39,788 nucleotides of DNA. Source: a virus. Position numbers and translations under genes: made by a program. Location: the IMG/VR virus record IMGVR_UViG_3300032431_000022; one strand, written 5' to 3'. The notes under the pieces are model-generated. The model was given only the letters and a program-made list of their open reading frames with translations. It did not search any database and was not told the origin of the DNA. Below are positions 3,101 to 21,543 of the stretch, one piece after another. The number at the start of each line of letters is the position of its first letter. The first letter of the stretch is position 1.

Positions 3101-5374
3101 ATGCCAACCAACATTATCACATTCGGTAGCGCGGTCGCATTTTCGGGTACATATCGGATCTACCGAAAGGCTCGCTGGGCTGATTCCTGGACACTCGACG
3201 AGCGGCTCCTCGTCACGGGCCTATCGATCGCCGCAGCTCCCACCATCCCGACCGCCTCGTTCACCTATCGATATGGCCAGGCTCGCGAATTCAATTCCGC
3301 GACGATGGTCACGCGATCGCGACTAAGCATCGAAGGCCACTTCATAGCGATCGAAGTCGATTGCCCCGAGGCCAGTACGTTCCATAGCTGGGTGGGCTAT
3401 GTCGATGCTGTATCGGAGAGCGAGCGCGGAGCAACACTGGTCGGCGCTAACATGATCGCAACCGGCCTGCAAACTTTTTCATGCGTTGGAATCGTCAACG
3501 CTTTAGCCTTCGAACAAATCGACAGGACGTTTTTTAACAACAACACAACCGGCACACAAAAGGCCGAGATGGCTCTTTCGCCACCGATCTTCAATCGGCT
3601 GATCAAAGATAAACTAACCGACGGAGATGACCGCCCCGAGCAATCGCGAGCAGACTCCAAGATCACCGAACCACCAGCGTCAACGACTGCGTTATCGTTC
3701 CTCCATATCTTCGATCGATTCTACGGACGCAACTCCAACGGCACAGTAACCTACAATAGCTGGTCCACCAAAGACATCGCCGAGCATCTCCTAGACCGCT
3801 ACCAACCACTGGATGCAACCGGAGCCAAAGCGATCAAATTTCGTTGGCGAGCGGGCTCGCTAGATCGTCTACCCACCGCCGACCAACCAATGCTCGATTG
3901 CACCGGAAAGACTCTCCTGCAATCACTCGACGAACTGATCACCGGAGCGAAGCTAATCGGCTACTATGCCGAGCACGTCATAGACGCAGCTGTTCCATGG
4001 ATCGAGCTGGTAACATTCACCTACGCATCAACCGCCGTCGACGTAGGCGATTACACAATCCCAGCCAACGACGACATCGTTGATCTGATCATGTTTGCCG
4101 ACCCAGCCACCGGCTACACAACGCAGTTCAACTTGTCGCAAAAGTACGACCAAGTAATTGCACGCGGAGCCCGCCGCAGAGTCGTCGCAACGCTCAACAT
4201 GAAAGACACCGCAGGCACCCCAGAGCCGAGTGTGATTCGATCATGGCCGACGTCATTACAAACAACTGACCGTCAAGCCAAGCTTGACGCGATTGCCGCA
4301 GAATCGGATGCAGTATCATCGCAATCCGAAAAGACCGAAAAGTATCTTGCGATATACGACTCGCCGCAGTTCTTCCCTGTCGGCTCAAACTTTATTTTGC
4401 GAGTCAATGGATGGACTGGCAACCGCCATTTTCAAATTGCATCGCACAGATTGTTTGAACAACAAAAGGACGCCGAAGGTAACGATCAAGACTACTACCC
4501 ATCTCCGCAATACTTGCGTGTCCTCAACGACCTGCCATTACTGGAGGGGATCAATTACAAAAACGGATTTTCACAATCGGCACTCGGATTACGGCCACGT
4601 CGATACCTGGAAAATCAAGTCTTTTCGCCTGAGTTTACGCAGTCCGGTGCTACGTTCACTGCGCATGCAACGAAAAAAGTTTACTGGGGTGATCGCCATA
4701 AACGAACGTACTTTTGGAAGCCCAGCGAGCCACCGTTTTCGATTAAGGGTGATCCCCTCGACAACGCGTGCGGTGTCGCGTTAAAAATCGAAGGAGCATC
4801 ACAGTACCAATTGCTGTTTGGTGACTTGTCGGTACCATCCAGCCCGTTCGTCCCGCACCTGCCACACATCGCCACGGCGCAATTGCAAGTGACATGCTGC
4901 CTCGAGGAAGATCGCCAAATCGAATCACGCTGGCCAACCGAAAGCACTATCTCCGCAGCCGCTGCTCTGGATGCCGTTCGCCGTCTGATCATCGACGCCC
5001 CGAACTGTCAAAAGAATCGCATCCTCGAGGGCACGCTCCTGTGGACCGATCAAGAAGTGTTCTCGGTCGCATCCACGCAAACGATCCGCGATGACACGGC
5101 AAAGCTCACTTCGCTCGCTAAACGAGCCTCCGCATGGTTCACAGTCCCGCGTCGAGTTCTGCGAGTCAAAACCGCTCGCACAACCTCACTCGTGGGTCTC
5201 GGTAAACTAGTTCGCAACATCGAAAACAGCACCGTCCAATCGCTCGAAATCAACACGGTAATCACGCAATTATCGCTAACCTTTGATTCCACACGCGGAC
5301 CATCCATGGAGATCGAAACCCAGTCCGGTCAAATCGATGCGCTCGCGTTTGTCCCCGCTGGTTGGGAGACCTAG
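3101..5374 (+). CDS. Large tail/baseplate-associated structural protein (757 aa)
   Basis: Long ORF directly after the distal tail candidate. No motif recognised. Confidence 0.45.
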   Translation: MPTNIITFGSAVAFSGTYRIYRKARWADSWTLDERLLVTGLSIAAAPTIPTASFTYRYGQAREFNSATMVTRSRLSIEGHFIAIEVDCPEASTFHSWVGYVDAVSESERGATLVGANMIATGLQTFSCVGIVNALAFEQIDRTFFNNNTTGTQKAEMALSPPIFNRLIKDKLTDGDDRPEQSRADSKITEPPASTTALSFLHIFDRFYGRNSNGTVTYNSWSTKDIAEHLLDRYQPLDATGAKAIKFRWRAGSLDRLPTADQPMLDCTGKTLLQSLDELITGAKLIGYYAEHVIDAAVPWIELVTFTYASTAVDVGDYTIPANDDIVDLIMFADPATGYTTQFNLSQKYDQVIARGARRRVVATLNMKDTAGTPEPSVIRSWPTSLQTTDRQAKLDAIAAESDAVSSQSEKTEKYLAIYDSPQFFPVGSNFILRVNGWTGNRHFQIASHRLFEQQKDAEGNDQDYYPSPQYLRVLNDLPLLEGINYKNGFSQSALGLRPRRYLENQVFSPEFTQSGATFTAHATKKVYWGDRHKRTYFWKPSEPPFSIKGDPLDNACGVALKIEGASQYQLLFGDLSVPSSPFVPHLPHIATAQLQVTCCLEEDRQIESRWPTESTISAAAALDAVRRLIIDAPNCQKNRILEGTLLWTDQEVFSVASTQTIRDDTAKLTSLAKRASAWFTVPRRVLRVKTARTTSLVGLGKLVRNIENSTVQSLEINTVITQLSLTFDSTRGPSMEIETQSGQIDALAFVPAGWET

Positions 5375-5385
5375 TAGTCGACCTA

Positions 5386-5463
5386 ATGAGCCGCAACGCG
5401 ATAGCGTGCGGTTTTTACGAACATAAAAGAAAGGAAACCGCACGCTATCGCGTTGCGGCTCAT
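5386..5463. repeat. Perfect inverted repeat: 29-bp arms (5386-5414 and 5435-5463) with a 20-nt loop
   Basis: atgagccgcaacgcgatagcgtgcggttt and its exact reverse complement, read directly. Intergenic between the 757-aa gene and ATG 5470. Confidence 0.95.
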
Positions 5464-5469
5464 AAAACC

Positions 5470-5925
5470 ATGAATGCCGCACGCGTAGTACGTCTAACCG
5501 GAGCCCGCACCGATACATCTACCGGTCCAGTCATGTGGTCGATCGAGATACCCGACGGAGATCCAATCGAATCCGACGAAATCTATTGCAACGCAGGTTT
5601 TTATTGGATCCTAGTCAACGTCAAAGTCAACTCTATTTCGACCATGACCAACGAACGCAAATTCGAATTTGACTTAGAAACGCTAACTCCTCGAGGCGTC
5701 ACTCTATCGACCCGAGAGCATACGCACCCAGTCCCAGGATTTAGCGCATCGTCGGCAGGTCCGCGATTGGTCTACCAATCACCGTTTCAGTTTTGGTCCT
5801 ACGGCACGATTATTCAGGGCACAAAACTAAAGCTAATCGTCGAGCATCCTTGCAACGTTGAATTGATCGCTGTCCGCCATGCAAACATTGCCAACGAGTC
5901 CATGATGGAATTGGAGCTGCGATAG
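5470..5925 (+). CDS. Hypothetical structural protein (151 aa)
   Basis: The ORF-track start at 5362 would translate the hairpin. The in-frame ATG at 5470 just after the hairpin is preferred. Confidence 0.5.
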   Translation: MNAARVVRLTGARTDTSTGPVMWSIEIPDGDPIESDEIYCNAGFYWILVNVKVNSISTMTNERKFEFDLETLTPRGVTLSTREHTHPVPGFSASSAGPRLVYQSPFQFWSYGTIIQGTKLKLIVEHPCNVELIAVRHANIANESMMELELR

Positions 5926-6525: not shown

Positions 6526-7583
6526 ACAATATCCAGCCATTCAATTACGTTGGCCATTGGACTGGAACCGGCACCACATCAGGAGCCGCCGTATCGATCA
6601 CAACCGCGCCCTACACACGTTCGACCGTCGACAGCAGCAGCGGCACCACCAGTCGATTCCAGTGGCGACCATCGACCCAAACCGCCGCACCCGACAAACG
6701 CGTTCTGCGCCCCCGAAACCGCATGTCAGTCGCGTATTTAATCACGGTCAGGCCAACAACAGCCACCTGGCAAACACGACTAACGCGAATGGAGATCGCA
6801 ACCAACCCATTCGTAAGACCCGATCATGTGCATTGTGTACCTGGCCTTCCTACCAGTTTTTCTACGGTCGCTTCAGCGTCTGGCACGACATACACCGCAC
6901 ACTACCCTGGTGCGATTGTCGTGCCAAATCCAATACTAGAGTTGTCGTCCGGCAACCCTCGAGTTGTCAGCGATCGAATTGTCGGAAACTCCAGCGGCGA
7001 GGTCCGGACTAACGGTATCAGTGGGGATGTGCAAATATTCGACAGCGAGCGAATATTTGCTACGGGCATTTTTAGCCAGGGTTTTGCACCCTATACGCGG
7101 ATACTTTCGGCGTATCAACTTGTCCACGGACTGACTTCCCCAATCACAACAAACATCTGGCCGCAGGATACATTTACTTCCTGGGGTATGGCTCACATCG
7201 GAGCCAATACCGATTGGTGCCCACCGATCATCGTCGAGGCCAGTGATACAGTAGATTTCGAGGCGTCGATGTCACTCTGGATAATCGATCGACCCGTCTC
7301 GCCATTTACGCAAACCAATCTACGAGCGATTTCCGAGAGCGGTCAGCGATCGCTCACCAATCTAGCCGTCTCGCCACCCACGCCAGCCGCCCCGCCGTTT
7401 GCATTCTCGCGGCACCGCATACTCCCCGCTGGTCAATACTGGCGAACCCTTACCTACCCCGCAACCTACGCCTCCCCGACCGCTCGCTGGTCCGCCGTCC
7501 CAGGATCCTCCAGCACCGGATTCACGCCACCAATCACAGAGCCAAGTTGCCCATTCGTAATCACGCCAGGCGTCCCAGACTAA
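6522..7583 (+). CDS. Hypothetical tail protein (353 aa), Ser/Thr/Pro-rich
   Basis: In-frame ATG 6522 overlaps the preceding stop (ATGA). Last gene of the plus-strand operon. Its stop overlaps the intI stop convergently by 4 nt. Confidence 0.5.
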   Translation: MNNIQPFNYVGHWTGTGTTSGAAVSITTAPYTRSTVDSSSGTTSRFQWRPSTQTAAPDKRVLRPRNRMSVAYLITVRPTTATWQTRLTRMEIATNPFVRPDHVHCVPGLPTSFSTVASASGTTYTAHYPGAIVVPNPILELSSGNPRVVSDRIVGNSSGEVRTNGISGDVQIFDSERIFATGIFSQGFAPYTRILSAYQLVHGLTSPITTNIWPQDTFTSWGMAHIGANTDWCPPIIVEASDTVDFEASMSLWIIDRPVSPFTQTNLRAISESGQRSLTNLAVSPPTPAAPPFAFSRHRILPAGQYWRTLTYPATYASPTARWSAVPGSSSTGFTPPITEPSCPFVITPGVPD

Positions 7584-8590
7584 GCCCGCTTCCGTCGATG
7601 GATCTGCATAGTCGAAGGGTTCGCCATTAGCGTCTCCAGCGGGCTCAAAGCCGCCGTCGCCTGATGTTCGTCCGAGTGTACGTAAATTTCAGTTGTCCTT
7701 ATATCCGCGTGACCCAAAAGTTGCATCAACGTTCGCATCGGTACGCCTTGCTCGTGCGAGTGCGTCGCGTATGAATGCCGTAGCACATGCGATGTTACCC
7801 GCTTCATAATCCCCGCTCGCTCAGATGCCTCCTTGATCATCCTTGCAATATGATCAGGATGGCGATGATGACGACACAAAACTCGCTCGTGCCCAACGCT
7901 AAGGCAGTCGCTTGGAAACAGGAAATACCACATCAGCGACGATGCCGCACGAGGCGATTTCCGCCGATACGCATCGGGCAGCGAAACGCCGTTTGGATTC
8001 TGCGTTTGATCGCATCGGCAAACCACTTCGACCGATTGGATTTGACGCCGAACCGCTTGATGCACAATCTCCGGAAAGACCGTAAACCGCCACTTTTCGC
8101 CCTTGGTTGTTTTGATCGCCAATTGTTTCCGATCGAAGCTAATATCCTTCAGCCTCAACCCAACAGCATCACCAATCCGAAGCCCGCACCCGTACATCAA
8201 TTGAGCGACCAACAGATTCACCCCGTCAAGCTGCGTGAACAACCTACCGACCTCACCGACACTCAGCACCTCACGAGTGTGAGCCTCCCGCTTGGCCCGC
8301 ATCGCGCTAACATTCTCGATCGAGATCCCCAGTATCTCCCGATAGAGATACAGCACCGCTTGCAAAGCAGTATTCTGAGTACTTTTCGACACACCCTTAT
8401 CCGTCGACAACCAAGACAACCACCGCTCAATTTCCACCCGCCCACAATCCTTCGGATGCCGCCACTCACTAGCATTGTACGACCGCACATGCTGCATATA
8501 GTCGACACAATACCCCCAATAAGTCCGAAAAGTATTAGGCGATAAGCCCTGCAACTTAATCTTCCGCTCCATCTGTTCCTCAAGTTTCAT
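7580..8590 (-). CDS. intI: Integron integrase (IntI-type tyrosine recombinase, 336 aa)
   Basis: GVSLPDAYRRKSPRAASSLMWYFLFP...CRHH matches the IntI-specific insertion (IntI1: [26 protein letters not shown]...RRHH). Catalytic set present: GLRIGD, KGEKWR, HVLRHSYAT, LLGHADIRTTEIYVH. SPLE tail is like IntI1 SPLD. Start chosen at MKLEEQ, with GAGGAG upstream. Confidence 0.85.
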   Translation of the reverse strand: MKLEEQMERKIKLQGLSPNTFRTYWGYCVDYMQHVRSYNASEWRHPKDCGRVEIERWLSWLSTDKGVSKSTQNTALQAVLYLYREILGISIENVSAMRAKREAHTREVLSVGEVGRLFTQLDGVNLLVAQLMYGCGLRIGDAVGLRLKDISFDRKQLAIKTTKGEKWRFTVFPEIVHQAVRRQIQSVEVVCRCDQTQNPNGVSLPDAYRRKSPRAASSLMWYFLFPSDCLSVGHERVLCRHHRHPDHIARMIKEASERAGIMKRVTSHVLRHSYATHSHEQGVPMRTLMQLLGHADIRTTEIYVHSDEHQATAALSPLETLMANPSTMQIHRRKRA

Positions 8591-8652
8591 TATCCTGCGC
8601 TCCTCATGTATTATCCGTGTTAAAAATCGACTAATAAGTTGTTCGCAGGGCC
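8591..8652. other. intI-proximal site: attI candidate or short degenerate attC-like hairpin
   Basis: gttcgcagggcc (8641-8652) is the exact complement of 9008-9019. cctgcg (8594-8599) pairs with cgcagg (8644-8649). The arm ttagtcgat resembles the consensus arm ttgaccgat. Overlaps the intI SD. Confidence 0.45.
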
Positions 8653-8999
8653 TACTTGCGGCCTTTTGGTTTTTTAATTGCACTCGGTGACGAATCAAGC
8701 TCGTCTTGGATTCTTGCTTGCCTACGCGATGCCAACTCGCCATACGCATAAGCTGCGATGCCTTCCATATTTTCCGCTGCTCCGTAATGATTGGTCAACG
8801 TCGCCTCGGCTTCCATGCCGTCCTCGCGAATGGCACTAAATCGCATCACGAAGAGTAGATCCCGAATCTTGTACTTGTTCCGTAGTTCATACAATTCATC
8901 ACAAAATTTCACTACTCGCTCATTCGCAACCTCGAATGATTCGTGAGGTATGCTGACTTCGCGGTATTGCTGCATGTCGTTTTTAATTACTGATGTCAT
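8652..8999 (-). CDS. Cassette ORF A, hypothetical (115 aa)
   Basis: Start moved to the in-frame ATG at 8999, because the upstream part of the track ORF lies in the attC-like hairpin. Flanked by a complementary 12-mer pair. Confidence 0.6.
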   Translation of the reverse strand: MTSVIKNDMQQYREVSIPHESFEVANERVVKFCDELYELRNKYKIRDLLFVMRFSAIREDGMEAEATLTNHYGAAENMEGIAAYAYGELASRRQARIQDELDSSPSAIKKPKGRK

Positions 9000-9007
9000 T
9001 TGATTAC

Positions 9008-9104
9008 GGCCCTGCGAACAAAGCGTTGGACCGAAGCACCGGCCAAACATTGATTTGAATTTGAATCGTCAACCGGTGCATCGGTCAACTATTTCGTTAT
9101 CGGG
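9008..9104. repeat. attC-like imperfect hairpin a1 (97 bp)
   Basis: Stem gaccgaAgcaccgg / ccggtgcAtcggtc with a conserved A.A mismatch. Outer boxes end in AAC (9017-9019) and GTT (9096-9098). Confidence 0.8.
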
Positions 9105-9312
9105 ATGACCAACGCTCAACAATGATCGCAACTGTAGCGACGATCCCAAGCGCAATTAAGACCCCTGCAACCAAAGCTAATCCACCCCAGAAAGGGAGAG
9201 TGACCAACCACCATGGCCAATCAATGACTCCGCAAAGCTTTAGCGTGACAAAAACAACTCCAAGTAAACCAGTAACACCTATGCCGCCTGACGAGATTCT
9301 TTTATCTGACAT
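9097..9312 (-). CDS. Cassette ORF B, small membrane protein (71 aa, about 2 TM)
   Basis: Hydrophobic segments GLLGVVFVTLKLCGV and GGLALVAGVLIALGIVATVAIIV. The TAA stop lies inside the ATAAC box. Leader is ttatcgggtgatttATG. Confidence 0.65.
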   Translation of the reverse strand: MSDKRISSGGIGVTGLLGVVFVTLKLCGVIDWPWWLVTLPFWGGLALVAGVLIALGIVATVAIIVERWSSR

Positions 9313-9318
9313 AAATCA

Positions 9319-9412
9319 CCCGATAACAAAGCGTTCGACCGAAGCACCGGCCAAACATTGATTTGATTGTTAAACGTCAACCGGTGCATCGGTCAACTAT
9401 TTCGTTAGGATG
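9319..9412. repeat. attC-like imperfect hairpin a2 (94 bp)
   Basis: Near-identical to a1, a3 and a6. Left box cccgataac, right box gttaggatg. Confidence 0.8.
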
Positions 9413-9524
9413 ACGGAAAATCCAACCTAACAAACATGATGACAAACCATACAGCCACGCTGAACAGTAAGCCACAGCCAAAACCTAGCCAAAAAATCAA
9501 TCCGTTTTCGCCTTGCTTGTCCAT
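9405..9524 (-). CDS. Cassette ORF C2, 39-aa hydrophobic peptide
   Basis: MDKQGENGLIFWLGFGCGLLFSVAVWFVIMFVRLDFPSS, with one TM segment. The stop lies inside the TAAC box of a2. A short ORF, so uncertain. Confidence 0.4.
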   Translation of the reverse strand: MDKQGENGLIFWLGFGCGLLFSVAVWFVIMFVRLDFPSS

Positions 9525-9568
9525 TGTTTTTTGCTGACTAGATGACTGTTTTTTGCTGACTAGATGAC
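9525..9568. repeat. Exact 22-bp tandem duplication (9525-9546, 9547-9568)
   Basis: tgttttttgctgactagatgac occurs twice, read directly. It spans the stop of ORF C1 and the leader of ORF C2. Confidence 0.9.
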
Positions 9569-9934
9569 AACTTCTTCGGTCTTTATTTGCGGGCGAGGCT
9601 GCAAATCCAACGTTGACCACTCAAATTTTATTTGCAACGCCTCGTCGACGAAACTGTACTCTTCAATTCGCCCATCAAGAGGCGTCGTTTTCTTGACCTT
9701 TTGTCCGCCAAAGAGCCGGTTGATGATTGCGTGCTTTTCCGAATCCTTGAAACACAACCAAAGCGAGACGCGAACGCCTGGAGCACTGCGAGGATGTAGG
9801 GTTATTCGAAAGTCCCCTAGATCGTTGCGATGTTCGTATGCCCATTCCGTGGCTCGTAGCATTCCCTCACGCGCAAGAATCCACCCATGATCAATGCTGT
9901 TTTGTACTTCCGTTTCTTCCGCGATTGCACTCAT
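9560..9934 (-). CDS. Cassette ORF C1, hypothetical (124 aa)
   Basis: Start moved to the in-frame ATG at 9934, outside hairpin a3. Confidence 0.6.
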   Translation of the reverse strand: MSAIAEETEVQNSIDHGWILAREGMLRATEWAYEHRNDLGDFRITLHPRSAPGVRVSLWLCFKDSEKHAIINRLFGGQKVKKTTPLDGRIEEYSFVDEALQIKFEWSTLDLQPRPQIKTEEVVI

Positions 9935-9941
9935 AATTCCG

Positions 9942-10035
9942 CATCCTAACAAAGCGTTGGACCGAAGCACCGGCCAAACATTGATTTGAAGCTGAATCGT
10001 CAACCGGTGCATCGGTCAACTATTTCGTTATCGGG
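9942..10035. repeat. attC-like imperfect hairpin a3 (94 bp)
   Basis: Same core as a1. Left box catcctaac, right box gttatcggg. Confidence 0.8.
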
Positions 10036-10264
10036 ACAGATTATTTTCGACCTGTTCCCGCCAATTTTTATTTCTAGCGTCCAGTTCATCGGCAATTACC
10101 CGAAGGTCTTTTGCAGACAATGCGCCACGATCCTTGATCCAGAAATATTGGAACCCGTCATCTAGTGGCCCAATCTCTTTGTGCTTATTCAGACTCGAAA
10201 TCACTTTGCGTCGGTGAATCGCATCGTCAGTATTCTGTCCCCATTCGCGGTTTGAATCACTCAT
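10028..10264 (-). CDS. Cassette ORF D, hypothetical (78 aa)
   Basis: Stop lies inside the ATAAC box of a3. ATG is 14 nt from the GTT box of a4. Confidence 0.6.
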   Translation of the reverse strand: MSDSNREWGQNTDDAIHRRKVISSLNKHKEIGPLDDGFQYFWIKDRGALSAKDLRVIADELDARNKNWREQVENNLSR

Positions 10265-10270
10265 TTACTG

Positions 10271-10365
10271 CCCTATAACAAAGCGTTGGACCGAAGCCGT
10301 CCGCAGCCTTTAAATTGATTGATATTCTTTTGTTGACGGCATCGGTCAACTATTTCGTTATGCGG
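10271..10365. repeat. attC-like imperfect hairpin a4 (95 bp), divergent sequence with the same fold
   Basis: Stem gaccgaAgccgtc / gacggcAtcggtc. The distal stem changes compensatorily relative to a1, and the A.A mismatch is retained. Confidence 0.8.
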
Positions 10366-10385
10366 ACGGTTTCCCGCAAATCTCT

Positions 10386-10649
10386 TTATTCGATTTGCGT
10401 ATTTTTCTTAGCCTCAATGACATGGCTAACAAACGCCCATTCTTTCCAATCTTTCTGTACATCTCGGCATCCACGATTGGCTGCTTCGGCCATCGCCATT
10501 ACGTCGACGGTACAAAGGCATTGGTCTTTTGACGGTTCAAACGCACATCCCGCAAGCAATGCAATCGGCACGCTTAACTCGTCAGATAGTCCACCTGCTG
10601 TTTCTATTTCTTTTCGGTCATCGCCGTCGATAACAACAACATCGCACAT
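10386..10649 (-). CDS. Cassette ORF E, hypothetical acidic Cys-containing protein (87 aa)
   Basis: ORF bounded by a4 and a5, flanked by the unit-specific pair gttatgcgg / ccgcataac. Confidence 0.6.
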   Translation of the reverse strand: MCDVVVIDGDDRKEIETAGGLSDELSVPIALLAGCAFEPSKDQCLCTVDVMAMAEAANRGCRDVQKDWKEWAFVSHVIEAKKNTQIE

Positions 10650-10657
10650 AATCGCCG

Positions 10658-10751
10658 CCGCATAACAAAGTCATGCATCGAAGTCCCCGTCGACGCTTGT
10701 TTTGATGGTAAATCACCGAGCGGGGACTCGATGATGACATTCGTTATCGGG
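10658..10751. repeat. attC-like imperfect hairpin a5 (94 bp), most divergent sequence with the same fold
   Basis: tcat[g]catcga[a]gtccccg pairs with cggggactcgatgatga. Two single-base bulges sit on the plus-strand 5' arm. Confidence 0.75.
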
Positions 10752-10965
10752 ATGAAACGTCCGCGTCGATTGAATTGACGTGAACTTTCAAAATCATCGC
10801 CTCATACCATGGTATATCGATTCCTCTTGTTTCTTTGATCCACCGAGACTTCGCCCGCCCATCCAGGTACGCCAGCGGAGACACCAGCAATCCAACGAAA
10901 ACCACTATCACTATCGTCATGCCAAAGACAGAACAGAGAAACTTAAATACTTCAGACCAATTCAT
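10744..10965 (-). CDS. Cassette ORF F, small membrane protein (73 aa)
   Basis: TM segment FGMTIVIVVFVGLLVSPLAYL. Stop lies inside the ATAAC box. Same leader as ORF B (ttatcgggtgatttATG). Confidence 0.65.
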   Translation of the reverse strand: MNWSEVFKFLCSVFGMTIVIVVFVGLLVSPLAYLDGRAKSRWIKETRGIDIPWYEAMILKVHVNSIDADVSSR

Positions 10966-10971
10966 AAATCA

Positions 10972-11065
10972 CCCGATAACAAAGCGTTGGACCGAAGCAC
11001 CGGCCAAACATTGATTTGAAGTTGAACCGTCAACCGGTGCATCGGTCAACTATTTCGTTATCCCG
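10972..11065. repeat. attC-like imperfect hairpin a6 (94 bp)
   Basis: Same core as a1-a3. Left box cccgataac, right box gttatcccg. Confidence 0.8.
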
Positions 11066-11066
11066 A

Positions 11067-11744
11067 TCAAAACAGCACGCCTTGCGACAGTCGCTTGGCC
11101 GCTATCTCGCAATACTCTTCGCTGATCTCAATCAGCGTTGCCTTACGGCCTTCGGCTTTCGCCGCAACGCCGGTTGTTCCACTCCCCGAAAACGGGTCGA
11201 GGATTGTTTTGACTTCTTCGCCAGCATGCCCTATGCACCACTTCATCAAGCCTAAAGGCTTTTCTGTTGGGTGGCTTTTTCCGTTCGTGTGTGCTTCTAC
11301 CCTGCTCATCCTGAACGTCTTGCACGGCTTATCTAAAGTCGTCCAAGCCGCTTCAAAATCACTGCCACTAAACTCCTGAATCTTGTCCCATGTCAACCAG
11401 CACCTGGACGGCTTTACGCTAAAATAGTTTCCACCCCAAACGATGTGCTTGCCTGCCGCCTCTAAAATCGCATCCATTAACCATTGGCTTGGTGTTGCGT
11501 TATCCCATTGGAAACTATCAAACTCCTTTCGCTTCGCGCCTGCTTGCATTTGCATCTTGCCAACTCCAATCCCATACGGTGGATCGGTCAACAGAAGATC
11601 GAACTTCCCCAGGAAGGGTAAAACCTGCCGACAATCTGCGTTGTAAATCGTCACCGCTTCATCCTGATAGTACGGACGAAAGGGTACTGACGGGATAACA
11701 ATTGCATGAACCGGAGCAACCGGCGGTATTTCATTTTGAATCAT
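11067..11744 (-). CDS. DNA methyltransferase, beta-class N6A/N4C (225 aa)
   Basis: LLLTDPPYG precedes DPFSGSGTTGVAA, the motif order typical of beta-class N6_N4 methyltransferases. Start placed at MIQNEI, preceded by GAGGA. Confidence 0.85.
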   Translation of the reverse strand: MIQNEIPPVAPVHAIVIPSVPFRPYYQDEAVTIYNADCRQVLPFLGKFDLLLTDPPYGIGVGKMQMQAGAKRKEFDSFQWDNATPSQWLMDAILEAAGKHIVWGGNYFSVKPSRCWLTWDKIQEFSGSDFEAAWTTLDKPCKTFRMSRVEAHTNGKSHPTEKPLGLMKWCIGHAGEEVKTILDPFSGSGTTGVAAKAEGRKATLIEISEEYCEIAAKRLSQGVLF

Positions 11745-11772
11745 AATTTTTCCTCGGTTGACCCGGTTATGC
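11691..11772. repeat. Degenerate attC-like site overlapping the methyltransferase 5' end
   Basis: cgggataac (11691-11699) is the exact complement of the a6 right box. The following arm aacaattgcatgaaccggagcaaccgg resembles the consensus arm. gttatgc lies at 11766-11772. Confidence 0.4.
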
Positions 11773-11782
11773 AAAGCGTTCA

Positions 11783-12205
11783 TCAGACCGGTTTAACGTA
11801 TTCGAACTCGATCCGCGTTACCTCTGTTTCAGGACTACATTTCATGTGTCCAGCAAACATTTCAACAAACTCCTTGCCTGTCATGCCGGGAAAACCCTCC
11901 ATCTCGCATTCTCCACGACCGTAGCCAGAGCTTTGGAGCATAGTGTCAAGCGACTCAAACGTAACATCCACAACCCGGATTTGTCCCAGTCGCTGAATCT
12001 GTTCGCCGGGCCTAAGTCCCATGCACTTAACGCACGCGTTTAGAATCTGTCCCGGTTTAAGATTCTTCCATCCAACGCGACGAGTGACGGTTTTGGTCCG
12101 TTTCCGAATTTGGTCTGTCGTTAGGGCAAACGATATATTTCTCGGCACGATGAACAATCCAATGCAACCGAGTTGCGGGTAAAGGTTTTTGAAGTGGAAA
12201 ATCAA
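11783..12205 (-). CDS. ASCH-domain protein (140 aa)
   Basis: ISFALTTDQIRKRTKTVTRRVGW is an ASCH-like N-terminal motif. Confidence 0.55.
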   Translation of the reverse strand: MIFHFKNLYPQLGCIGLFIVPRNISFALTTDQIRKRTKTVTRRVGWKNLKPGQILNACVKCMGLRPGEQIQRLGQIRVVDVTFESLDTMLQSSGYGRGECEMEGFPGMTGKEFVEMFAGHMKCSPETEVTRIEFEYVKPV

Positions 12206-12241
12206 CTGGCCGCAACCGGTTGATTGGAAGCGTTCGTCGTA

Positions 12242-12580
12242 TTACGCAAACTGTTTAGCCGCGTAAATACGTTCGTAATTTGACCGCCTGCGATTCTGAA
12301 AATCCACGACTGATTGCACGCCCTCGAAATCGCACTCGTGAAGCTCATCCATCAGCGCGCCATGACAGTGGCAATGTAAATCGATTTCTTTAATCATGTC
12401 CAGACACGTTTGGCAAGTCCGATAGTCGCTAAAATCACCTTCCCAAAGTCCCTTGGCGTATTCGTGTTGCTCGCCTTTTTCGATAACACGCAAGCACTCA
12501 CTGCATTGATGATCCTTGCGGCCTTTAACGACCTTAGATTCGTAAAATTCTGGTGGGTTGTCCCAGTAGCAATCGCACAT
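12242..12580 (-). CDS. Cys/His-rich hypothetical protein (112 aa)
   Basis: Several CxxC and HCHCH motifs. AGGAG lies upstream of the ATG. Confidence 0.6.
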   Translation of the reverse strand: MCDCYWDNPPEFYESKVVKGRKDHQCSECLRVIEKGEQHEYAKGLWEGDFSDYRTCQTCLDMIKEIDLHCHCHGALMDELHECDFEGVQSVVDFQNRRRSNYERIYAAKQFA

Positions 12581-12665
12581 AACAAACTCCTAAAAGCGAT
12601 GGACCGAAGCCATTGATTAACGTTAATTGCTTAAAACATCTTCTAGCGACGGCATGAGTCATCGC
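12578..12665. repeat. Degenerate attC-like hairpin a7
   Basis: cataacaaa..aaagcgatggaccgaagcc resembles the consensus left arm. The stem 12596-12611 / 12651-12665 keeps the A.A irregularity. No clear right-hand GTT box. Confidence 0.4.
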
Positions 12666-12694
12666 AATCGTCTCCTGATTCATAAACCACGGGC

Positions 12695-13153
12695 CTACCT
12701 CACTTCTGAAATGATTACTGCGAGTTGCTCGTTAAATTCCATTTGCGTTACTTCGTTGTTTTTTAGTTTTTGAGTTAAAGTCACGCCATTGACATATGCG
12801 CGATCGATTCCGTAGTCGAACATTGCTTTTCTTGTTCCGTTAGCTTCGCGTTTTTCGCGGGCTCGTCGTTGCAAATCGGATTCTTGGCGACCCTTGTCGC
12901 GGGTGAACATAGCGGACGCCCGCACCACCAAAGCGATACGATCGTACTCATACGCCTTCGGTGGTTCGCGTCTACCGTGGGTCCAGTCGCCAAGCACGAA
13001 TAAAGCCTCGGAAAACTCAACGCCGCCGAGTACTGAAAACCAAACTTCCATCGTCGCTTTTAGGTCCGGTGATTTGTCCGAAAGCTGGCCAAGGAATGAC
13101 GGAAAAGCCACAAATAATTGCCTCGTAAATTCGGTAAATTGATTGGCATTCAT
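12695..13153 (-). CDS. Hypothetical replication-module protein (152 aa)
   Basis: Position after the DUF1376 gene. Weak resemblance to helicase-loader-type small proteins, not verified. Confidence 0.5.
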   Translation of the reverse strand: MNANQFTEFTRQLFVAFPSFLGQLSDKSPDLKATMEVWFSVLGGVEFSEALFVLGDWTHGRREPPKAYEYDRIALVVRASAMFTRDKGRQESDLQRRAREKREANGTRKAMFDYGIDRAYVNGVTLTQKLKNNEVTQMEFNEQLAVIISEVR

Positions 13154-13905
13154 GCGTCTGCTCCTGCGACAATTGGGATCTTGGGTGGTGATTTTTGAAA
13201 CCTCCCGCCGCTGGGAAACTGCTTCGGTTCCTGAGTTCGATGATCGCCGTTTAGTAGCAAATTCTTCGCGCCCTTAGTCATCGAAAACTCAATGATTTCT
13301 ATTGCTTCTGTCTCGTTTTTGGCGGCCCGGTCGAGGGCCATGATTTGAGATTCCTCAGCGGTCTCGGTCAACGGTTTTTGCTGTTCCGCAAGGTGCTTTC
13401 GCCACCGAGTCCAAGCCTCGGAAAACTTCATCGAATCAAAACCAGCAACCACCCGAGAGTGAGAGAGAGTAATTGAAGAAGAAGATGAAGATGAAGAGCG
13501 GTGTAACATCGGTGTTACATCTGCGTTACAACTACCGTTACTGATATTTTCCTTTCCGTTTTTCCTGTGTTTTGCCACTCTTACCTTTGTGCTCTTGCGA
13601 TCTTCTTCGTCTCGAACCATTCGCCGAGAATAAAAGGCACCGCGTTCATCAACCGAACAAACACACTTTTCAACAAGCTCGACAATGGCCTTCCTCGTAA
13701 CATCCGCGTTACCACCTACAGCCGCAGTCACGTCATCGACAGACCACACACTGGAACCGGTACCGAGAACGCCACGAGGCGAACATTCGAACATAAGGCA
13801 AAGCATATCTACCCACACGCCTCGCGCCGCATGGCTGCAACGACGGACGCATGGATCTTTCATCCAGTCACCTGGATAAAATTGGAACGCTGGCATCTTA
13901 CCCAC
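13150..13905 (-). CDS. DUF1376-family (YdaU-like) phage replication-associated protein (251 aa)
   Basis: N-terminal FQFYPGDWMKD...ARGVWVDMLCLMF matches the DUF1376 pattern. Contains a poly-Ser linker. Confidence 0.55.
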   Translation of the reverse strand: MGKMPAFQFYPGDWMKDPCVRRCSHAARGVWVDMLCLMFECSPRGVLGTGSSVWSVDDVTAAVGGNADVTRKAIVELVEKCVCSVDERGAFYSRRMVRDEEDRKSTKVRVAKHRKNGKENISNGSCNADVTPMLHRSSSSSSSSITLSHSRVVAGFDSMKFSEAWTRWRKHLAEQQKPLTETAEESQIMALDRAAKNETEAIEIIEFSMTKGAKNLLLNGDHRTQEPKQFPSGGRFQKSPPKIPIVAGADA

Positions 13906-18238: not shown

Positions 18239-18443
18239 TGCTATGCCTTTCAAGTAAGTAACTGAAAAGCATCTTGCATCAATCCATGTCCAAATCCAGG
18301 ACGAATGCAAATGTACGTAGGGTGTGTGCATACGTCAATAACATTTATTCGCAAAACATACAATGTTTGCACACAGAGTGGACGCAAAGCCTTGCACGCC
18401 AAATGCTTATTGACTTTGAAGAATTTTTTGGGAAAGTGTCTGC

Positions 18444-18821
18444 ATGTCTAAACCTAAAGTGCTGATCCCAACACAAAAACTAAACGAACTGGCGGATTTC
18501 CTCGACTTACTTGCTGAGATTGCGAGGAAAGCAACCGGGGATCACGAGGCCGCAGCTACCGGTGGCGTTGATATGGATGGATGGCCGACTTTGATCAGAG
18601 GGCTTGAGTACGTCAAAGACCAGATGATTAAAATCGCTGGTCCGGCAAGCAAGGTTCACTTGTTGGAGCCTGCGGCGTTATTGCTGCCAGATCAGTCAAT
18701 CGAAAAGACTAAAACCAATCGAAAACGGAAGACTGTTAAAGTAGCTACGCAAGCGTTACAGGCTGCGGAATCGAAGGCAAATTACGATTCCAAGCCGCGA
18801 AAGAAGGCTCGCGGCCCGTAG
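18444..18821 (+). CDS. Hypothetical protein (125 aa), first gene of the lysogeny-side operon
   Basis: ORF with a basic C-terminus. No motif recognised. Confidence 0.5.
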   Translation: MSKPKVLIPTQKLNELADFLDLLAEIARKATGDHEAAATGGVDMDGWPTLIRGLEYVKDQMIKIAGPASKVHLLEPAALLLPDQSIEKTKTNRKRKTVKVATQALQAAESKANYDSKPRKKARGP

Positions 18822-20146: not shown

Positions 20147-20374
20147 ATGTCTCAGATCATCGATCACCCACAACTCGTCGATTCGCAAGGATCGACGATT
20201 ATCTACCAATCGATCCAGAAACTCGCGTACACTCGTCGCGAGGCGTCTAAGGTGACTGGCGTGTCTCTCAATCAGATCAAAGAGGCCGTTTCGATTGGCG
20301 AACTCAAAGCCAAAAAGAAGGGCCGCGAATGGATCATCACTGCTGCTGATTTGATCGCCTGGGTGGCTTCGTGA
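20147..20374 (+). CDS. xis: Excisionase-family HTH DNA-binding protein (75 aa)
   Basis: YTRREASKVTGVSLNQIKEAVSIGELKAKKKGREWIITAADLIAWV follows the Xis/MerR-type HTH pattern. Overlaps the int start. Confidence 0.65.
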   Translation: MSQIIDHPQLVDSQGSTIIYQSIQKLAYTRREASKVTGVSLNQIKEAVSIGELKAKKKGREWIITAADLIAWVAS

Positions 20375-21543
20375 CTTGTGTGTACCACGACGCCAACAAG
20401 GACGGTTGGCGGCTGGAAACATGGATCAGAGGCGTAAAGCGTAAGCTGTGGCTTGGGGCGATCTCCAAAGGAGCCGCTGCGAAAGTACGCGAAAACGTAC
20501 ACGCCTTGAAGCTCGCGGCGGAAACTGGCACCGCTCCCGAGCCACACGTTGCCAAGTGGGCCGCTGCAGTTGGTAAGCGATTGGCAGACCAGCTCGCTAA
20601 GTTGGGGCTTATCCTGCCTCGTGGCGAATGTGCTGCGTCGTTCACAGTCGAAACTTTGATGGATCGATACTTAGCGACCGAGCGAAACAAATCTTGGTCG
20701 GCATCGTATCGCGGTACATTCGAAAAGCTCAAGCAAGAGTTTGGGGATTACTTTGGCCAAGTCACGATTGATCGGATCACCGATTCGCACGCTAAAGACT
20801 TTGCCGCGAAAGTATATTCCGAGTTTGCTGAGAGTACCGCTGGAAGCAAGGTAAAGCGGGCTCGGCAATTGTTCGCCTTTGCGATCGACCTGCGATTGAT
20901 CGATAGTAATCCATTCCGCGCGGTTAAGGTAAAGACCGGTATCGACAAGACTAGGAAGGCTTACATCACACTAGACGCTGCCGAATTGATCCTAGACAGG
21001 CTACCAGACCAGCTCTGGCGAACGATCTTTACCTTTGCTCGGTTTGGAGGCGTCCGCATCCCCAGCGAGATCCTAACGCTCAAGTGGACCGCTATTGACT
21101 GGCATAACCACCGTATCACTATCACCTCACCCAAGGGCCGTAACTACGCGCACAGGGCAACTAGGGTAATACCGATGGTCCCAATGCTCAAGGATGCACT
21201 GACTGCATTGCATAGCCTAGCACCCGAGGGGGCTGTCTGGGTGTGCGATCGCTACCGGTCGACTAGCAGTTCCCAGTTCCGTAAGCCCTTGCTCCAGGCC
21301 ATCGAGAAGGCGGCGCTAGAGGCATGGCCCAAGCTGTACGTCAACCTTCGTGCGTCATGTCGTACAGACATGCTGAAGAAATTCGAACCACACATCGTCG
21401 ACGATTGGCTCGGACATGATGGCGCGGTAGGAAGTAAGCACTACGACCGCATCACTGAGGCTGATTTCGCTAAGGCCACCGCCCCCACAATCGCCCCCAC
21501 GTTATCAAAAAGCACTAGAAAAACCAGCAAAAAGCACGAATGA
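20371..21543 (+). CDS. int: Phage tyrosine integrase (390 aa)
   Basis: RFGGVRIPSEILTLKW (Arg box), LRASCRTD and WLGHDGAVGSKHY at the C-terminus. Preceded by Xis. Confidence 0.8.
   Translation: MTCVYHDANKDGWRLETWIRGVKRKLWLGAISKGAAAKVRENVHALKLAAETGTAPEPHVAKWAAAVGKRLADQLAKLGLILPRGECAASFTVETLMDRYLATERNKSWSASYRGTFEKLKQEFGDYFGQVTIDRITDSHAKDFAAKVYSEFAESTAGSKVKRARQLFAFAIDLRLIDSNPFRAVKVKTGIDKTRKAYITLDAAELILDRLPDQLWRTIFTFARFGGVRIPSEILTLKWTAIDWHNHRITITSPKGRNYAHRATRVIPMVPMLKDALTALHSLAPEGAVWVCDRYRSTSSSQFRKPLLQAIEKAALEAWPKLYVNLRASCRTDMLKKFEPHIVDDWLGHDGAVGSKHYDRITEADFAKATAPTIAPTLSKSTRKTSKKHE
21477..21501 (+). repeat. 25-bp direct repeat copy 1 (inside the int 3' end)
   Basis: caccgcccccacaatcgcccccacg, 24/25 identical to 21662-21686. 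Confidence 0.9.

Follow-up and report, generated by a model that had tools for sequence, protein, structure and literature searches.

Hairpin repeats of a temperate phage as probable attC sites of an integron whose genes read towards the integrase

The integrase gene, attI and the array

The DNA that we analysed (the window: 39,788 nt, IMG/VR record IMGVR_UViG_3300032431_000022, coordinates on the plus strand) is that of a temperate phage. Its gene intI (7580–8590, minus strand) codes for a protein of 336 aa which, as its profile matches indicate, is an integron integrase with the IntI-specific additional domain. The protein scored 282.7 bits against TIGR02249 (cut-off 265), while the XerC and XerD models reached only 96–109 bits; the Pfam models Phage_int_SAM_4 and Phage_integrase matched as well. 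The IntI-specific segment GVSLPDAYRRKSPRAASSLMWYFLFPS aligned with IntI1, and the catalytic residues R, K, HxxR, H and Y were conserved.

The attI region (8591–8652) carries a GCGCAGG repeat (CCTGCGC at 8594–8600), the conserved AATAAGTT at 8633–8640, and the predicted crossover triplet GTT at 8641–8643 (G|TT on the plus strand, AA|C on the minus strand). The segment GTTCGCAGGGCC (8641–8652) is already the end of cassette 1: it is the reverse complement of 9010–9021, and the left box of the first repeat, GGCCCTGCGAAC, pairs with this attI-side GTTCGCAGGGCC. All 10 loci that had sequence upstream of intI showed RRAAC|AA(C/T)TTATT followed by GCGCAGG-type repeats before the ATG of intI.

Beyond attI, the repeats a1 to a9 alternate with ORFs. 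Coordinates of the repeats refer to the plus strand (top strand), while the ORFs are on the minus strand; bit scores of the repeats are those of the covariance model R1, which had been built in the plus orientation and from whose training set a7 was left out. Matches of R1 in the window were confined to this intI-proximal array.

The ORF of cassette 1 (8652–9050, 132 aa) is of no known family, with no match in Pfam or PHROG, and its codon usage scored +18.9 bits on the minus strand versus −5.1 on the plus strand. Repeat a1 (9013–9102; AAC 9017–9019, GTT 9096–9098; 105.7 bits) folds. The ORF of cassette 2 (9097–9312) codes for a small hydrophobic protein of 71 aa (phrog_1374, E = 3.1e-20); its TAA stop lies inside the ATAA|C box and its ATG 13 nt past the box, in GTTATCGGGTGATTTATG. 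Then come a2 (9321–9410; AAC 9325–9327, GTT 9404–9406; 101.8 bits), where the bulged base is C in a constrained fold, and a3 (9944–10033; AAC 9948–9950, GTT 10027–10029; 106.1 bits), which folds. The ORF of cassette 4 (10028–10264, 78 aa) had codon usage scores of +7.5 on the minus and −11.0 on the plus strand. It is followed by a4 (10273–10363; AAC 10277–10279, GTT 10357–10359; 86 bits, fold z −2.5), by the ORF of cassette 5 (10386–10649, 87 aa; codon usage +8.4 versus −4.4) and by a5 (10660–10749; AAC 10664–10666, GTT 10743–10745; 84.5 bits, fold z −5.6).

The ORF of cassette 6 (10744–10965, 73 aa) has the 5′ leader GTTATCGGGTGATTTATG and the 3′ end of cassette 2, and a6 lies at 10974–11063 (AAC 10978–10980, GTT 11057–11059; 107.1 bits). 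Cassette 7 (ORF 11067–11747) codes for an N6/N4 DNA methyltransferase (Pfam N6_N4_Mtase, E = 9.3e-23). Its ribosome-binding site (GAGGA) and ATG are situated in the loop of a7 (11693–11784; AAC 11697–11699, GTT 11778–11780; 50.5 bits, E = 7.8e-10), with the ATG 47 nt inside the site. The ORF of cassette 8 (11783–12205; codon usage +13.1 versus −0.7) had a weak ASCH-like match, below the cut-off of Pfam ASCH (E = 0.003), and is followed by a8 (12149–12238; AAC at 12153, GTT ending at 12234; 37.8 bits, E = 1.2e-6), whose bulges are G and, 6 bp on, A. The ORF of cassette 9 (12242–12580, 112 aa) matched phrog_19515 (E = 3.7e-13). At the far end of the array there is a degenerate attC remnant, a9 (12585–12678; 26.3 bits, E = 1e-3), with the a4-like arms AAAGCGATGGACCGAAGCC / GACGGCATGAGTCATC.

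The left box of each site was the reverse complement of the right box of the preceding site, as the ends of cassettes look, and complementary boxes of 8–12 nt surround most of the first seven cassettes. For example, the left box of a7, GGGATAAC, is complementary to the right box of a6, GTTATCCCG. In the a3/a4 pair, GTTAT matches and the boxes then diverge (GTTATCGGG vs GTTATAGGG).

Folding and covariation of the repeats

A sequence-only reading of this DNA had described six repeats, a1 to a6, with a common fold. The repeat sequences that it quoted were all found in the window. The arm GACCGAAGCACCGG occurs exactly at 9029, 9337, 9960 and 10990, and its partner arm, with one mismatch (A/T), at 9073, 9381, 10004 and 11034. 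A search for this arm with up to 3 mismatches gave 15 matches compared to 4.3 expected, a number that none of 100 shuffles reached. The stem arms are GACCGAAGCCGTC / GACGGCATCGGTC in a4 (AAC 10277 to GTT 10359) and CATCGA[A]GTCCCCG / CGGGGACTCGATG in a5 (10664–10745).

Unconstrained folding of both strands as single-stranded DNA, which the same reading had proposed, produced the same hairpin in six of six sites, with z from −2.5 to −5.6. In the plus strand folds of a1–a6, AAC and GTT are paired, and an extra C stands beside GTT on the 3′ arm. The 5′ arm has a one-base bulge (G; C in a2), then 5–6 bp, and then either an A.A mismatch (a1–a4 and a6) or a bulged A (a5), as expected for an irregular A kept in all six sites. 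The bulged G described about 6 nt nearer to the AAC box on the 5′ arm is replaced by C in a2. The statement that the helix is rebuilt from different bases was correct for a5, where both stems are rebuilt and the bulges are G and, after 6 bp, a true bulged A. In a4 it was true only of the distal 6 bp (GCCGTC/GACGGC); the proximal stem stays of the a1 type. Similarly, the loops, said to be unrelated, are so in a4 and a5, while those of a1, a2, a3 and a6 are nearly identical to one another. The array was also longer than the six sites first counted, since R1 added a7, a8 and the degenerate a9.

For the covariation analysis we used 36 related sites from 11 other loci, none of them included in the training of the model. 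The alignments were fitted to the structure of the model and thus favour that structure, a bias that independent folds offset; with this in mind, paired cells made up 89.2%, compared to 67.4% in shuffles and 29–43% with the partner slid, and double-change cells numbered 167 versus 60.7. The covariation score was 0.564 versus 0.178, a value reached by 0 of 500 shuffles, and the alignment A4 agreed. Compensatory changes were seen in 15 of 16 stem pairs. In folds computed independently, z was ≤ −2.9 for 11 of 12 related sites, and the irregular bases were placed consistently in the minimum-energy folds of 38 sites. Thus, neither of the two observations by which the earlier reading could have fallen, loss of covariation upon addition of homologs and inconsistent placement of the irregular bases, was made.

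AAC and GTT were invariant in 33 of 33 and in 36 of 36 aligned sites, and so was AACAA...CGTT among the aligned sites; the wider consensus RYYYAAC/GTTRRRY was followed only loosely (e.g., GTTATCG). Sites with E < 1e-5 numbered 48, from 13 sources; each of them was 5′ of intI, on the strand that does not code for it. An inverted-repeat search of two of the related loci (L002 and L003) had missed attC sites that the covariance model recovered. The earlier observation was confirmed: the repeats share one hairpin design that is built from different bases and folds as single-stranded DNA.

Irregular bases, spacer and choice of strand

The first extrahelical base of the plus strand was G in 30 of 33 sites and C in the other three, while the second irregular base was A in 32 of 33, hence T on the bottom strand. 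The bulge and the irregular A are 6 bp apart, and both are on the arm that carries 5′-AAC on the plus strand. The central spacer had n nt on the 5′ side and n + 1 nt on the 3′ side in nearly all sites, in the form of AA/AGC, AAA/AAGC, or an extra C beside GTT. Among 38 folded sites, a one-base bulge on the other arm beside the L box was found in none; the exceptions on that arm were a 2-nt bulge (L013:9294) and a 1-nt bulge within the spacer-side helix (L003:8779). Three sites had a third bulge midway, like VCR2 and attC-oxa2.

In attC sites, the arm with the extrahelical bases is the one that carries AAC when the top strand folds, and the one across from AAC when the bottom strand folds (PMC5027507). 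By this rule the minus strand of the window is the recombined, or bottom, strand. The plus strand is then the non-recombined top strand although it carries the bulged G, a point absent from the sequence-only reading. The first extrahelical base of canonical bottom strands is usually G (PMC5027507); here it was C in 30 of 33 sites and G in three. No single extrahelical base is essential (PMC5027507). The second irregular position in a1–a4 and a6 is a T.T (A.A) mismatch and not a true bulge.

With the same folding script, class 1 attC top strands showed the same geometry. The aadA2 and aadA7-like sites had a 5/6 spacer, 3 bp, a bulge, 6 bp and a bulge on the AAC arm; gcuF had the aadA2-type pattern but 9 bp between the bulges. 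It is the plus strand of the sites in the window that gives the aadA2-type pattern. The model R1 also matched class 1 attC sites on the ORF-sense top strand (L016, 16778–16843 on plus and 8289–8380 on minus). A MAFFT alignment of canonical attC sites, 52–125 nt long, was poor. The sequence-only reading had concluded from compensatory changes and from extrahelical bases at fixed positions that the repeats are attC sites. This conclusion is supported by the geometry, the published rule, the complementary boxes of neighbouring sites, and the integrase and attI-like junction that adjoin the array.

Other strand markers said little. The bottom strand was the more stable one in 24 of 33 sites, by 0.21 kcal/mol on average (p = 0.08). 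Folding energy, G:T pairs and purine skew agreed in direction, with a weak effect, and Vibrio controls also break the rule.

Strand and start sites of the cassette genes

All cassette ORFs are on the bottom (minus) strand of the attC sites and read towards intI, and an attC is 5′ of each ORF. The canonical layout, in which the attC top strand also carries the ORF, the attC follows the ORF and the gene points away from intI and Pc, was not seen. The codon-usage scores summed to +91.9 bits on the minus strand versus −35.7 on the plus strand, and the family matches (the methyltransferase and two PHROG matches) were on the minus strand too. The length of the longest stop-free run was ambiguous as a test of coding strand for short cassettes (25 vs 13). 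Both the strand of the cassette ORFs and the phage setting are points that the sequence-only reading had not raised.

In at least 11 of 38 sites, the loop carried a ribosome-binding site and an ATG from which the ORF reads through the arm. ORFs started inside the upstream attC in differing frames (−41, −44, −47, −48, −58 and −60), which means that an ORF and its upstream attC must travel together. The methyltransferase of cassette 7 is 52% identical to a methyltransferase of another locus (L004), where a homologous attC is found at the 5′ end. Cassettes 2 and 6 share both flanks but their proteins are unrelated, and therefore this pair is uninformative on which attC travels with which ORF.

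We found no Pc-like promoter, while the attC orientation and attI are those of a regular-type integron; since the ORFs face intI, an outward Pc is irrelevant. A sigma-70 promoter scan for the array gave fewer matches than in shuffles and identified no promoter.

Phage context and exchange of arrays

Relatives of the integrase, with 41–71% identity, were present in about 15 other phage-like contigs, and this IntI lineage was in phage-like contigs in every context examined. A scan of genome contigs with IntI gave one distant match, in TM6, at 25% identity. Anti-restriction genes (N6/N4, Dam-like and C5 methyltransferases, and Lar) are common among the cargo of the lineage.

In a sister phage, an identical IntI (P0043) and attI–intI backbone came with three different arrays. 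From AAC|AATTTATT on, the identity was 100%, while the sequences preceding this point were unrelated; the arrays join the backbone exactly at AA|C. One cassette 3′ end was joined there to two different attC cores, with the identity ending at GAAC(GCT). This polymorphism was observed in a relative with 65% IntI identity and not in the window's own phage; the two other contigs with the IntI of the window's phage both break at a1, and no alternative array was found for this phage.

Interpretation

attC sites in general are recombined as folded single-stranded DNA by the integron integrase, and the crossover takes place between A and C of the bottom-strand AAC. Given the structure and covariation of the repeats, the gene content, the cassette boundaries and the exchange of arrays at AA|C in the sister phage, we put the probability at roughly 85% that the temperate phage genome carries a complete integron, with the repeats as its attC sites, the genes on the bottom strand (the recombined one) and an attC in front of each gene.

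In single-stranded DNA, each site would fold into a hairpin where pairing, not sequence, recreates the two integrase boxes, R (AAC/GTT) and L, and the IntI encoded next to the array would bind this hairpin. The strand would be signalled to IntI by the spacer arm longer by 1 nt and by the pair of extrahelical bases that one arm carries at a distance of 6 bp. With the minus strand as the bottom strand, the irregular bases (C, then T) would be on the arm opposite 5′-AAC-3′, and IntI would cleave this AAC at its A–C step, a position that reads G|TT on the plus strand, at each site's right end. Recombination of attC with attC would excise a cassette, and that of attI with attC would insert one at 8641, beside intI. 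In the sense of the gene, such a cassette would consist of C, the attC hairpin, GTTRRRY, (a ribosome-binding site) ATG, the ORF and RYYYAA; with the ORF on the bottom strand, as in no described integron, this layout makes the genes read towards intI. The cassette genes would presumably be transcribed by read-through from the leftward early operon of the phage, not from Pc.

With clearly less assurance, and still on balance, we favour a wider statement, that of a phage-native integron lineage in which the gene is on the recombined (bottom) strand with attC 5′ of it, the loop often supplies the ribosome-binding site and start codon, transcription of the whole array runs towards intI, at the tail of a phage early operon, and the cargo abounds in anti-restriction genes.

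In integron theory, selectivity for the bottom strand is linked to the expression of promoterless genes from Pc. A lineage with genes on the other strand would mean that the recombination machinery and the logic of expression are separable, and its reversed arrays would offer a natural way to test what the extrahelical bases actually select; that the first extrahelical base of the recombined strand is C instead of G is relevant to its reading by IntI. If the statement is true, phages carry a working gene-capture platform of their own with anti-restriction cargo, beyond occasionally captured host integrons. Annotation pipelines that assume cassette genes and attC to share one orientation would assign the cargo of such arrays wrongly.

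Alternative explanations

The first alternative is the mirror choice of strand: the plus strand would be recombined, the extrahelical bases would be on its AAC arm, and the cassettes would be ordinary ones, ORF then attC, read on the minus strand. The ORFs would then have their canonical relation to the recombined strand, and G, the usual first base of canonical bottom strands (PMC5027507), does sit on the plus strand in 30 of 33 sites. This choice, however, leaves the attI-proximal cassette with no attC core between its ORF and the conserved attI–intI segment, and separates the methyltransferase and other ORFs from the upstream attC inside which they start and with which, given the differing frames, they must travel. 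It is also at odds with the sister phage, where the same cassette 3′ end is joined to different attC cores and identity stops at AAC, as well as with the spacer asymmetry and AACAA...CGTT, which match canonical top strands, and with the matches of R1 to the top strand of class 1 sites. We consider the mirror choice improbable.

A second alternative, slightly less probable still, is a decaying relic. The sites would be real attC sites which no longer recombine, and whose structure was kept by past selection or as RNA hairpins at start sites; many loops do have a ribosome-binding site and ATG. The scores of a7–a9 become ever weaker (50.5, 37.8 and 26.3 bits), yet the best sites are in the cassettes nearest to attI, and intI is intact with all catalytic residues present. 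Duplication could explain why a1, a2, a3 and a6 are almost identical, but the boxes are still pairwise complementary across each cassette. Though no alternative array was found for the exact phage, in a related phage three arrays, all beside an identical IntI, have been exchanged precisely at attI. Finally, it is not obvious what the extrahelical bases would do for an RNA hairpin.

The least probable alternative is that the small genes are separated by chance by ordinary hairpins of the intergenic kind, such as REP-like elements, intrinsic terminators or a miniature transposon. The repeats are intergenic, palindromic and repeated, and a simple terminator scan overlapped parts of a2 and a4 (two partial matches only), but no G+C-rich stem precedes a run of T, AAC/GTT is invariant with bulges at fixed positions and an asymmetric spacer, the boxes are chimeric between neighbouring sites, sites in 13 sources occur only 5′ of an integron integrase and in one orientation, and an Rfam scan of the window gave no match. 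The REP and terminator readings were rejected already on the structure and the intI-only location.

Comparison with known integrons

Returning to the reading as attC sites of a phage integron, we compared the array with described systems. Class 1 attC sites (aadA2, aadA7 and gcuF) are, like the sites here, imperfect palindromes bounded by AAC...GTT, with AACAA on the left and CGTT on the right. They share the central spacer shorter by 1 nt on the AAC arm, the bulge a few bp past the spacer, and a second irregular base (A top, T bottom) 6 bp further on the same arm. In both, the loop is variable and structure is kept while sequence varies; the family model matches the aadA7-like top strand. On the other hand, the phage sites are longer (82–83 nt from AAC to GTT compared to 52–62), with spacers of about 6/7 rather than 5/6. 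Their first extrahelical base is G on the top and C on the bottom strand, the reverse of class 1 sites (C top, G bottom), and the second irregular base is often a mismatch where class 1 sites have a bulge. Unlike class 1 cassettes, those of the phage array have the ORF on the bottom strand with attC at its 5′ side.

As in described regular integrons, the 5′ end of intI is beside attI, which consists of a crossover box and direct repeats, the attC array runs outwards from intI, with the attC top strands on the strand opposite to intI, and the R boxes of adjacent sites are chimeric. The cassette genes of those described integrons diverge from intI, whereas in the phage array all converge on it. 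According to one statement in the literature, neither mobile nor chromosomal integrons had ever been observed with cassettes that face the integrase (PMC5027507). The inverted-integrase integrons of Treponema denticola also have intI and cassette genes co-directional. In Treponema, transcription of intI runs towards attI, intI shares its strand with the attC top strand, and the cassettes are of the ordinary kind (PMC3607928, PMC4889954); in the phage integron intI points away from attI, it is opposite to the attC top strand (as in 13 of 13 sources), and what is inverted are the ORFs within the cassettes.

The phage integrons described previously look like captured host integrons (PMC9892861). 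A literature search for reversed cassettes or phage-native integrons returned nothing beyond Qi et al. 2023, and we met with no account of such arrays in the searchable literature. Qi et al. 2023 reported CALINs and attC sites in virulent phages, with DNA methyltransferases as recurrent cargo. Those clusters had no integrase, while the phage integron has intI and attI, and the array varies between isolates of a related phage.

Repeats and hairpin design

Four repeats of a larger set, with AAC...GTT limits on the + strand, lie in the region singled out by the sequence-only reading. Numbered outward from the integron integrase gene intI, the first six sites extend, from AAC to GTT, over 9017-9098 (a1), 9325-9406 (a2), 9948-10029 (a3), 10277-10359 (a4), 10664-10745 (a5) and 10978-11059 (a6), all on the + strand. 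A search with R1, a covariance model in + orientation, showed that the array has nine sites, with a7, a8 and a degenerate a9 carrying it on to position 12678. All the stem sequences quoted in that reading were found in the window. The a1-type arm has four exact copies and its partner arm has four copies with a single A/T difference; a search for the a1-type arm with at most three mismatches produced 15 matches versus 4.3 expected.

Unconstrained single-stranded DNA folds of a1-a6 gave a single hairpin design on both strands, with z-scores from -2.5 to -5.6 relative to dinucleotide shuffles. In the + strand fold, AAC is paired with GTT, an extra C adjoins GTT in the 3' arm, and the 5' arm has a one-base bulge, a G in every site except a2, where it is a C. 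Located 5-6 bp beyond this first bulge is an A.A mismatch (a1-a4, a6) or a bulged A (a5), followed by a distal stem of 6-8 bp whose bases differ in a4 and a5.

Covariation in related loci

The R1 model was trained on the six window sites and two sites of one related locus. It matched 33 sites in the window and nine related loci (E < 1e-5), and 15 further sites from three additional loci. The covariation test used 36 sites from 11 loci, none of them present in R1 training. Standard pairs made up 89.2% of cells compared to 67.4% with shuffled partners, and pairing fell to 29-43% when partners were slid by 1-3 columns. The number of cells changed on both sides was 167 (60.7 in shuffles), the covariation score was 0.564 (0.178 in shuffles, with 0 of 500 shuffles as high), and compensatory changes were seen in 15 of the 16 main-helix pairs. 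Since the alignment was fitted to R1, each site was also folded individually; the same hairpin design was obtained again, with z ≤ -2.9 in 11 of 12 related sites.

The unpaired bases were the most conserved portion of the sites. Among the 33 aligned sites, AACAA on the left and CGTT on the right showed no variation, the first bulge was G in 30 sites and C in 3, and the second irregular base was A in 32. The hairpin design is under selection, as had been claimed from the window alone: covariation was kept once homologs outside the training set were added, and independent folds placed the irregular bases consistently among sites.

Three related sites (L002:9543-9638, L005:556-672 and L011:5129-5245) have three single-base bulges on the AAC arm (G, 3 bp, A, 3 bp, A), which parallels the arrangement of three extrahelical bases described in VCR2 and attC-oxa2.

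Integrase gene and attI

Immediately to the left of a1 is intI, a 336-aa ORF (7580-8590, - strand) that passes the NCBI integron-integrase model TIGR02249 with 282.7 bits at a cut-off of 265; the XerC and XerD models gave about 100 bits. Alignment showed that it has both the extra segment specific to IntI and the catalytic residues. The interval between intI and the array reads AATAAGTT|GTTCGCAGGGCC at 8633-8652, where the right part, GTTCGCAGGGCC, is the exact reverse complement of the left box of a1 (9010-9021). The left box of each site is complementary to the right box of the preceding site over 8-12 nt, and such neighboring boxes have the look of cassette ends left by recombination at G|TT. 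Ten loci include sequence 5' of the gene for an IntI relative; each of them has an AAC|AA(C/T)TTATT junction ahead of the intI start codon, with GCGCAGG-type repeats after the junction. This layout is similar to that of attI1, a simple site with direct repeats. With the adjoining intI, the attI junction, the complementary boxes and the canonical bulge geometry, the repeats are confirmed as attC sites at the level of sequence comparison, in observation and interpretation alike.

Just outside attI, within the 3' end of the cassette 1 ORF, the + strand has a hairpin and T run resembling a terminator (8643-8665); it might block transcription out of intI/attI into the array.

Strand assignment

The recombined bottom strand of an attC site carries 5'-AAC-3' in R' (Nivina et al. 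2016, PMC5027507). Extrahelical bases are situated on the arm opposite AAC in the bottom strand and on the AAC arm itself in the top strand; in the bottom strand the first one is usually G and the last one is a conserved T, with a 6-bp stem between them (PMC5027507). Canonical controls of class 1 (L015, L016), Vibrio type (L014) and Shewanella type (L017) were analyzed by the same fold-walk script as the phage sites. The class 1 top strands (gene sense) showed a 5/6 spacer, 3 bp, a bulge on the AAC arm and a second bulge on the same arm, at a bulge-to-bulge distance of 6 bp in aadA2 and aadA7-like sites and 9 bp in gcuF.

The phage sites have this strand asymmetry as well: the window + strand, opposite to intI, gives the aadA2-type pattern. 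The R1 model in + orientation matched two class 1 attC sites, the aadA7-like one and a dfr-side one, in each case on the gene-sense top strand, and had no match on their reverse strands. Therefore, + is the top strand and - is the bottom strand. The bottom strand here has an extrahelical T, 6 bp and an extrahelical C, compared to T, 6 bp and G in canonical sites.

Cassette genes

Every cassette ORF is on the - strand, the attC bottom strand, in the same direction as intI. Among them are an N6/N4 methyltransferase (11067-11747, -; Pfam E = 9e-23) and two ORFs with PHROG matches (9097-9312, - and 12242-12580, -). The summed codon-usage scores were +91.9 bits for the - strand versus -35.7 for the + strand. 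In relatives, a C5-methyltransferase-like ORF and conserved proteins are on the intI-sense strand, antisense frames look non-coding, and gene calls agree on the cassette strand in every related locus.

At least 11 of 38 sites carry, on the bottom strand, a strong ribosome-binding site and ATG within the hairpin loop, and the ORFs started there read on through the 3' arm and the box. The window methyltransferase starts in the a7 loop; its homolog in L004 (52% identical) has a homologous attC at the 5' end. In other sites the ATG is about 13 nt past the box (GTTATCGGGTGATTTATG), and for many ORFs the stop codon is the TAA within the ...TAA|C box that comes next. Because ORFs start in or just after attC, each attC is the 5' part of its own cassette.

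Cassettes 9097-9312 and 10744-10965 code for unrelated proteins and have an identical 18-nt leader, GTTATCGGGTGATTTATG, with the box, a ribosome-binding-like GGGTGA and ATG; their 3' ends also match exactly over 13 nt (GTTATCGGGATGA on +). It seems that the extended boxes are homogenised regardless of the cargo. Cassette 3 has a perfect 22-nt tandem duplication, two copies of TGTTTTTTGCTGACTAGATGAC at 9525-9568, located at the stop of a 150-aa ORF (9560-10012, -) that is overlapped by a 71-aa ORF (9405-9620, -); the duplication may have split one gene.

Array exchange in a sister phage

An IntI relative of a sister phage, P0043, is 65% identical to the window IntI, and the identical protein is encoded on at least 24 contigs with a common phage backbone, to which three different arrays are joined. 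The contigs are 100% identical from AAC|AATTTATT onwards, 91 nt before the intI ATG, and their sequences upstream of this point are unrelated. Two of the arrays have a common cassette 3' end up to GTGTGAAC(GCT), then different attC cores. Since identity ends there, with different cores beyond, the arrays were exchanged at AA|C of the gene-sense strand, on the 5' side of each attC. The gene-sense strand is thus confirmed as the bottom strand, and each attC as moving with the ORF downstream of it. The same exchange point argues against the mirror-image assignment, recombination of the G-bearing + strand, which we consider very improbable.

Many assemblies stop within or just before the array (L021 and L022, two other contigs with the window's exact IntI; L005-L007, L009, L010 and L012), and the L022 contig end falls inside an attC. 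The pattern points to the near-identical attC repeats, or to arrays that differ within the population, as the cause of broken metagenome assemblies at the array.

Possible recombination and expression

With - as the bottom strand, the established integron pathway would have IntI bind the folded - strand and cut the R' AAC between A and C. Recombination of attC with attC would lead to cassette excision, while recombination of attI with attC would lead to insertion at 8641, resolved by replication. More speculatively, phage early promoters could drive the cassettes and intI by read-through (the scan for promoters gave no useful information), and loops with a ribosome-binding site and ATG could hold start sites single-stranded in an mRNA hairpin.

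Comparison with known integrons

Two integron types are known by intI orientation relative to attC (PMC13323075). By this orientation the window integron is of the regular type and not of the Treponema inverted-integrase type, where intI reads towards attI (PMC3607928). It departs, however, from the known regular type in its cassettes; according to Nivina et al. (PMC5027507), promoter-facing cassettes had never been observed in mobile or chromosomal integrons. Qi et al. 2023 (PMC9892861) reported complete integrons in just 3 phage genomes out of 10,705: a Vibrio case described as captured from the host's chromosomal integron, the P1 case, described as a mosaic of class 1 integrons, and a third in a Shewanella prophage that is inactive. 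A literature search, with coverage incomplete and absence not being proof, gave no description of this phage-integron lineage or cassette orientation. What is new, as judged from sequence, is a phage-borne integron with bottom-strand cassettes and with C instead of G as the first extrahelical base.

Phage context and cargo

The window is a temperate phage or prophage. It encodes a gpA-type terminase large subunit (21797-23794, -), a lambda-family portal (28099-29607, +), a tail tube protein (38217-39155) and a replisome organizer (13150-13905, -). Beside the terminase gene is a second, ordinary tyrosine integrase of 390 aa (20371-21543, +; Pfam Phage_integrase and Phage_int_M), probably the phage's own lysogeny integrase; one genome would therefore have two integrases with different jobs. 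The array and intI are the tail of an unbroken - strand gene block beginning near 18.3 kb. The divergent region 18310-18450, between the - strand block (ends 18331) and the + strand block (starts 18444), has three weak promoter-like matches on the - strand and is likely the control region that would drive transcription of the array and intI.

All IntI relatives with 41-71% identity were in phage-like contigs (with portal, capsid, terminase, RecT or RuvC) or IMG/VR viral contigs; GenBank phage records had no IntI relative above 35% identity. The environmental virus record KX853513 (Virus Rctr41k, GenBank) has at 4686-5642 an IntI-like protein annotated as xerD, with 45% identity to IntI1 and 35% to the window IntI, and may be another overlooked phage integron.

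The recurrent cargo includes N6/N4, Dam-like and C5 methyltransferases and a Lar-type restriction alleviation protein. In related phage loci, anti-restriction functions are frequent among genes upstream of intI (L020 8177-9938; L019 7082-7894; L018 3808-4722; L024 111-590; L008 6933-8059), with C5 DNA methylase in L020 and L008, Dam-like MethyltransfD12 in L020, L019 and L018, and Lar_restr_allev in L024. Both methyltransferase genes of L020 begin inside an attC loop; the L018 MethyltransfD12 gene, upstream of the attC sites found by R1, may not be a cassette.
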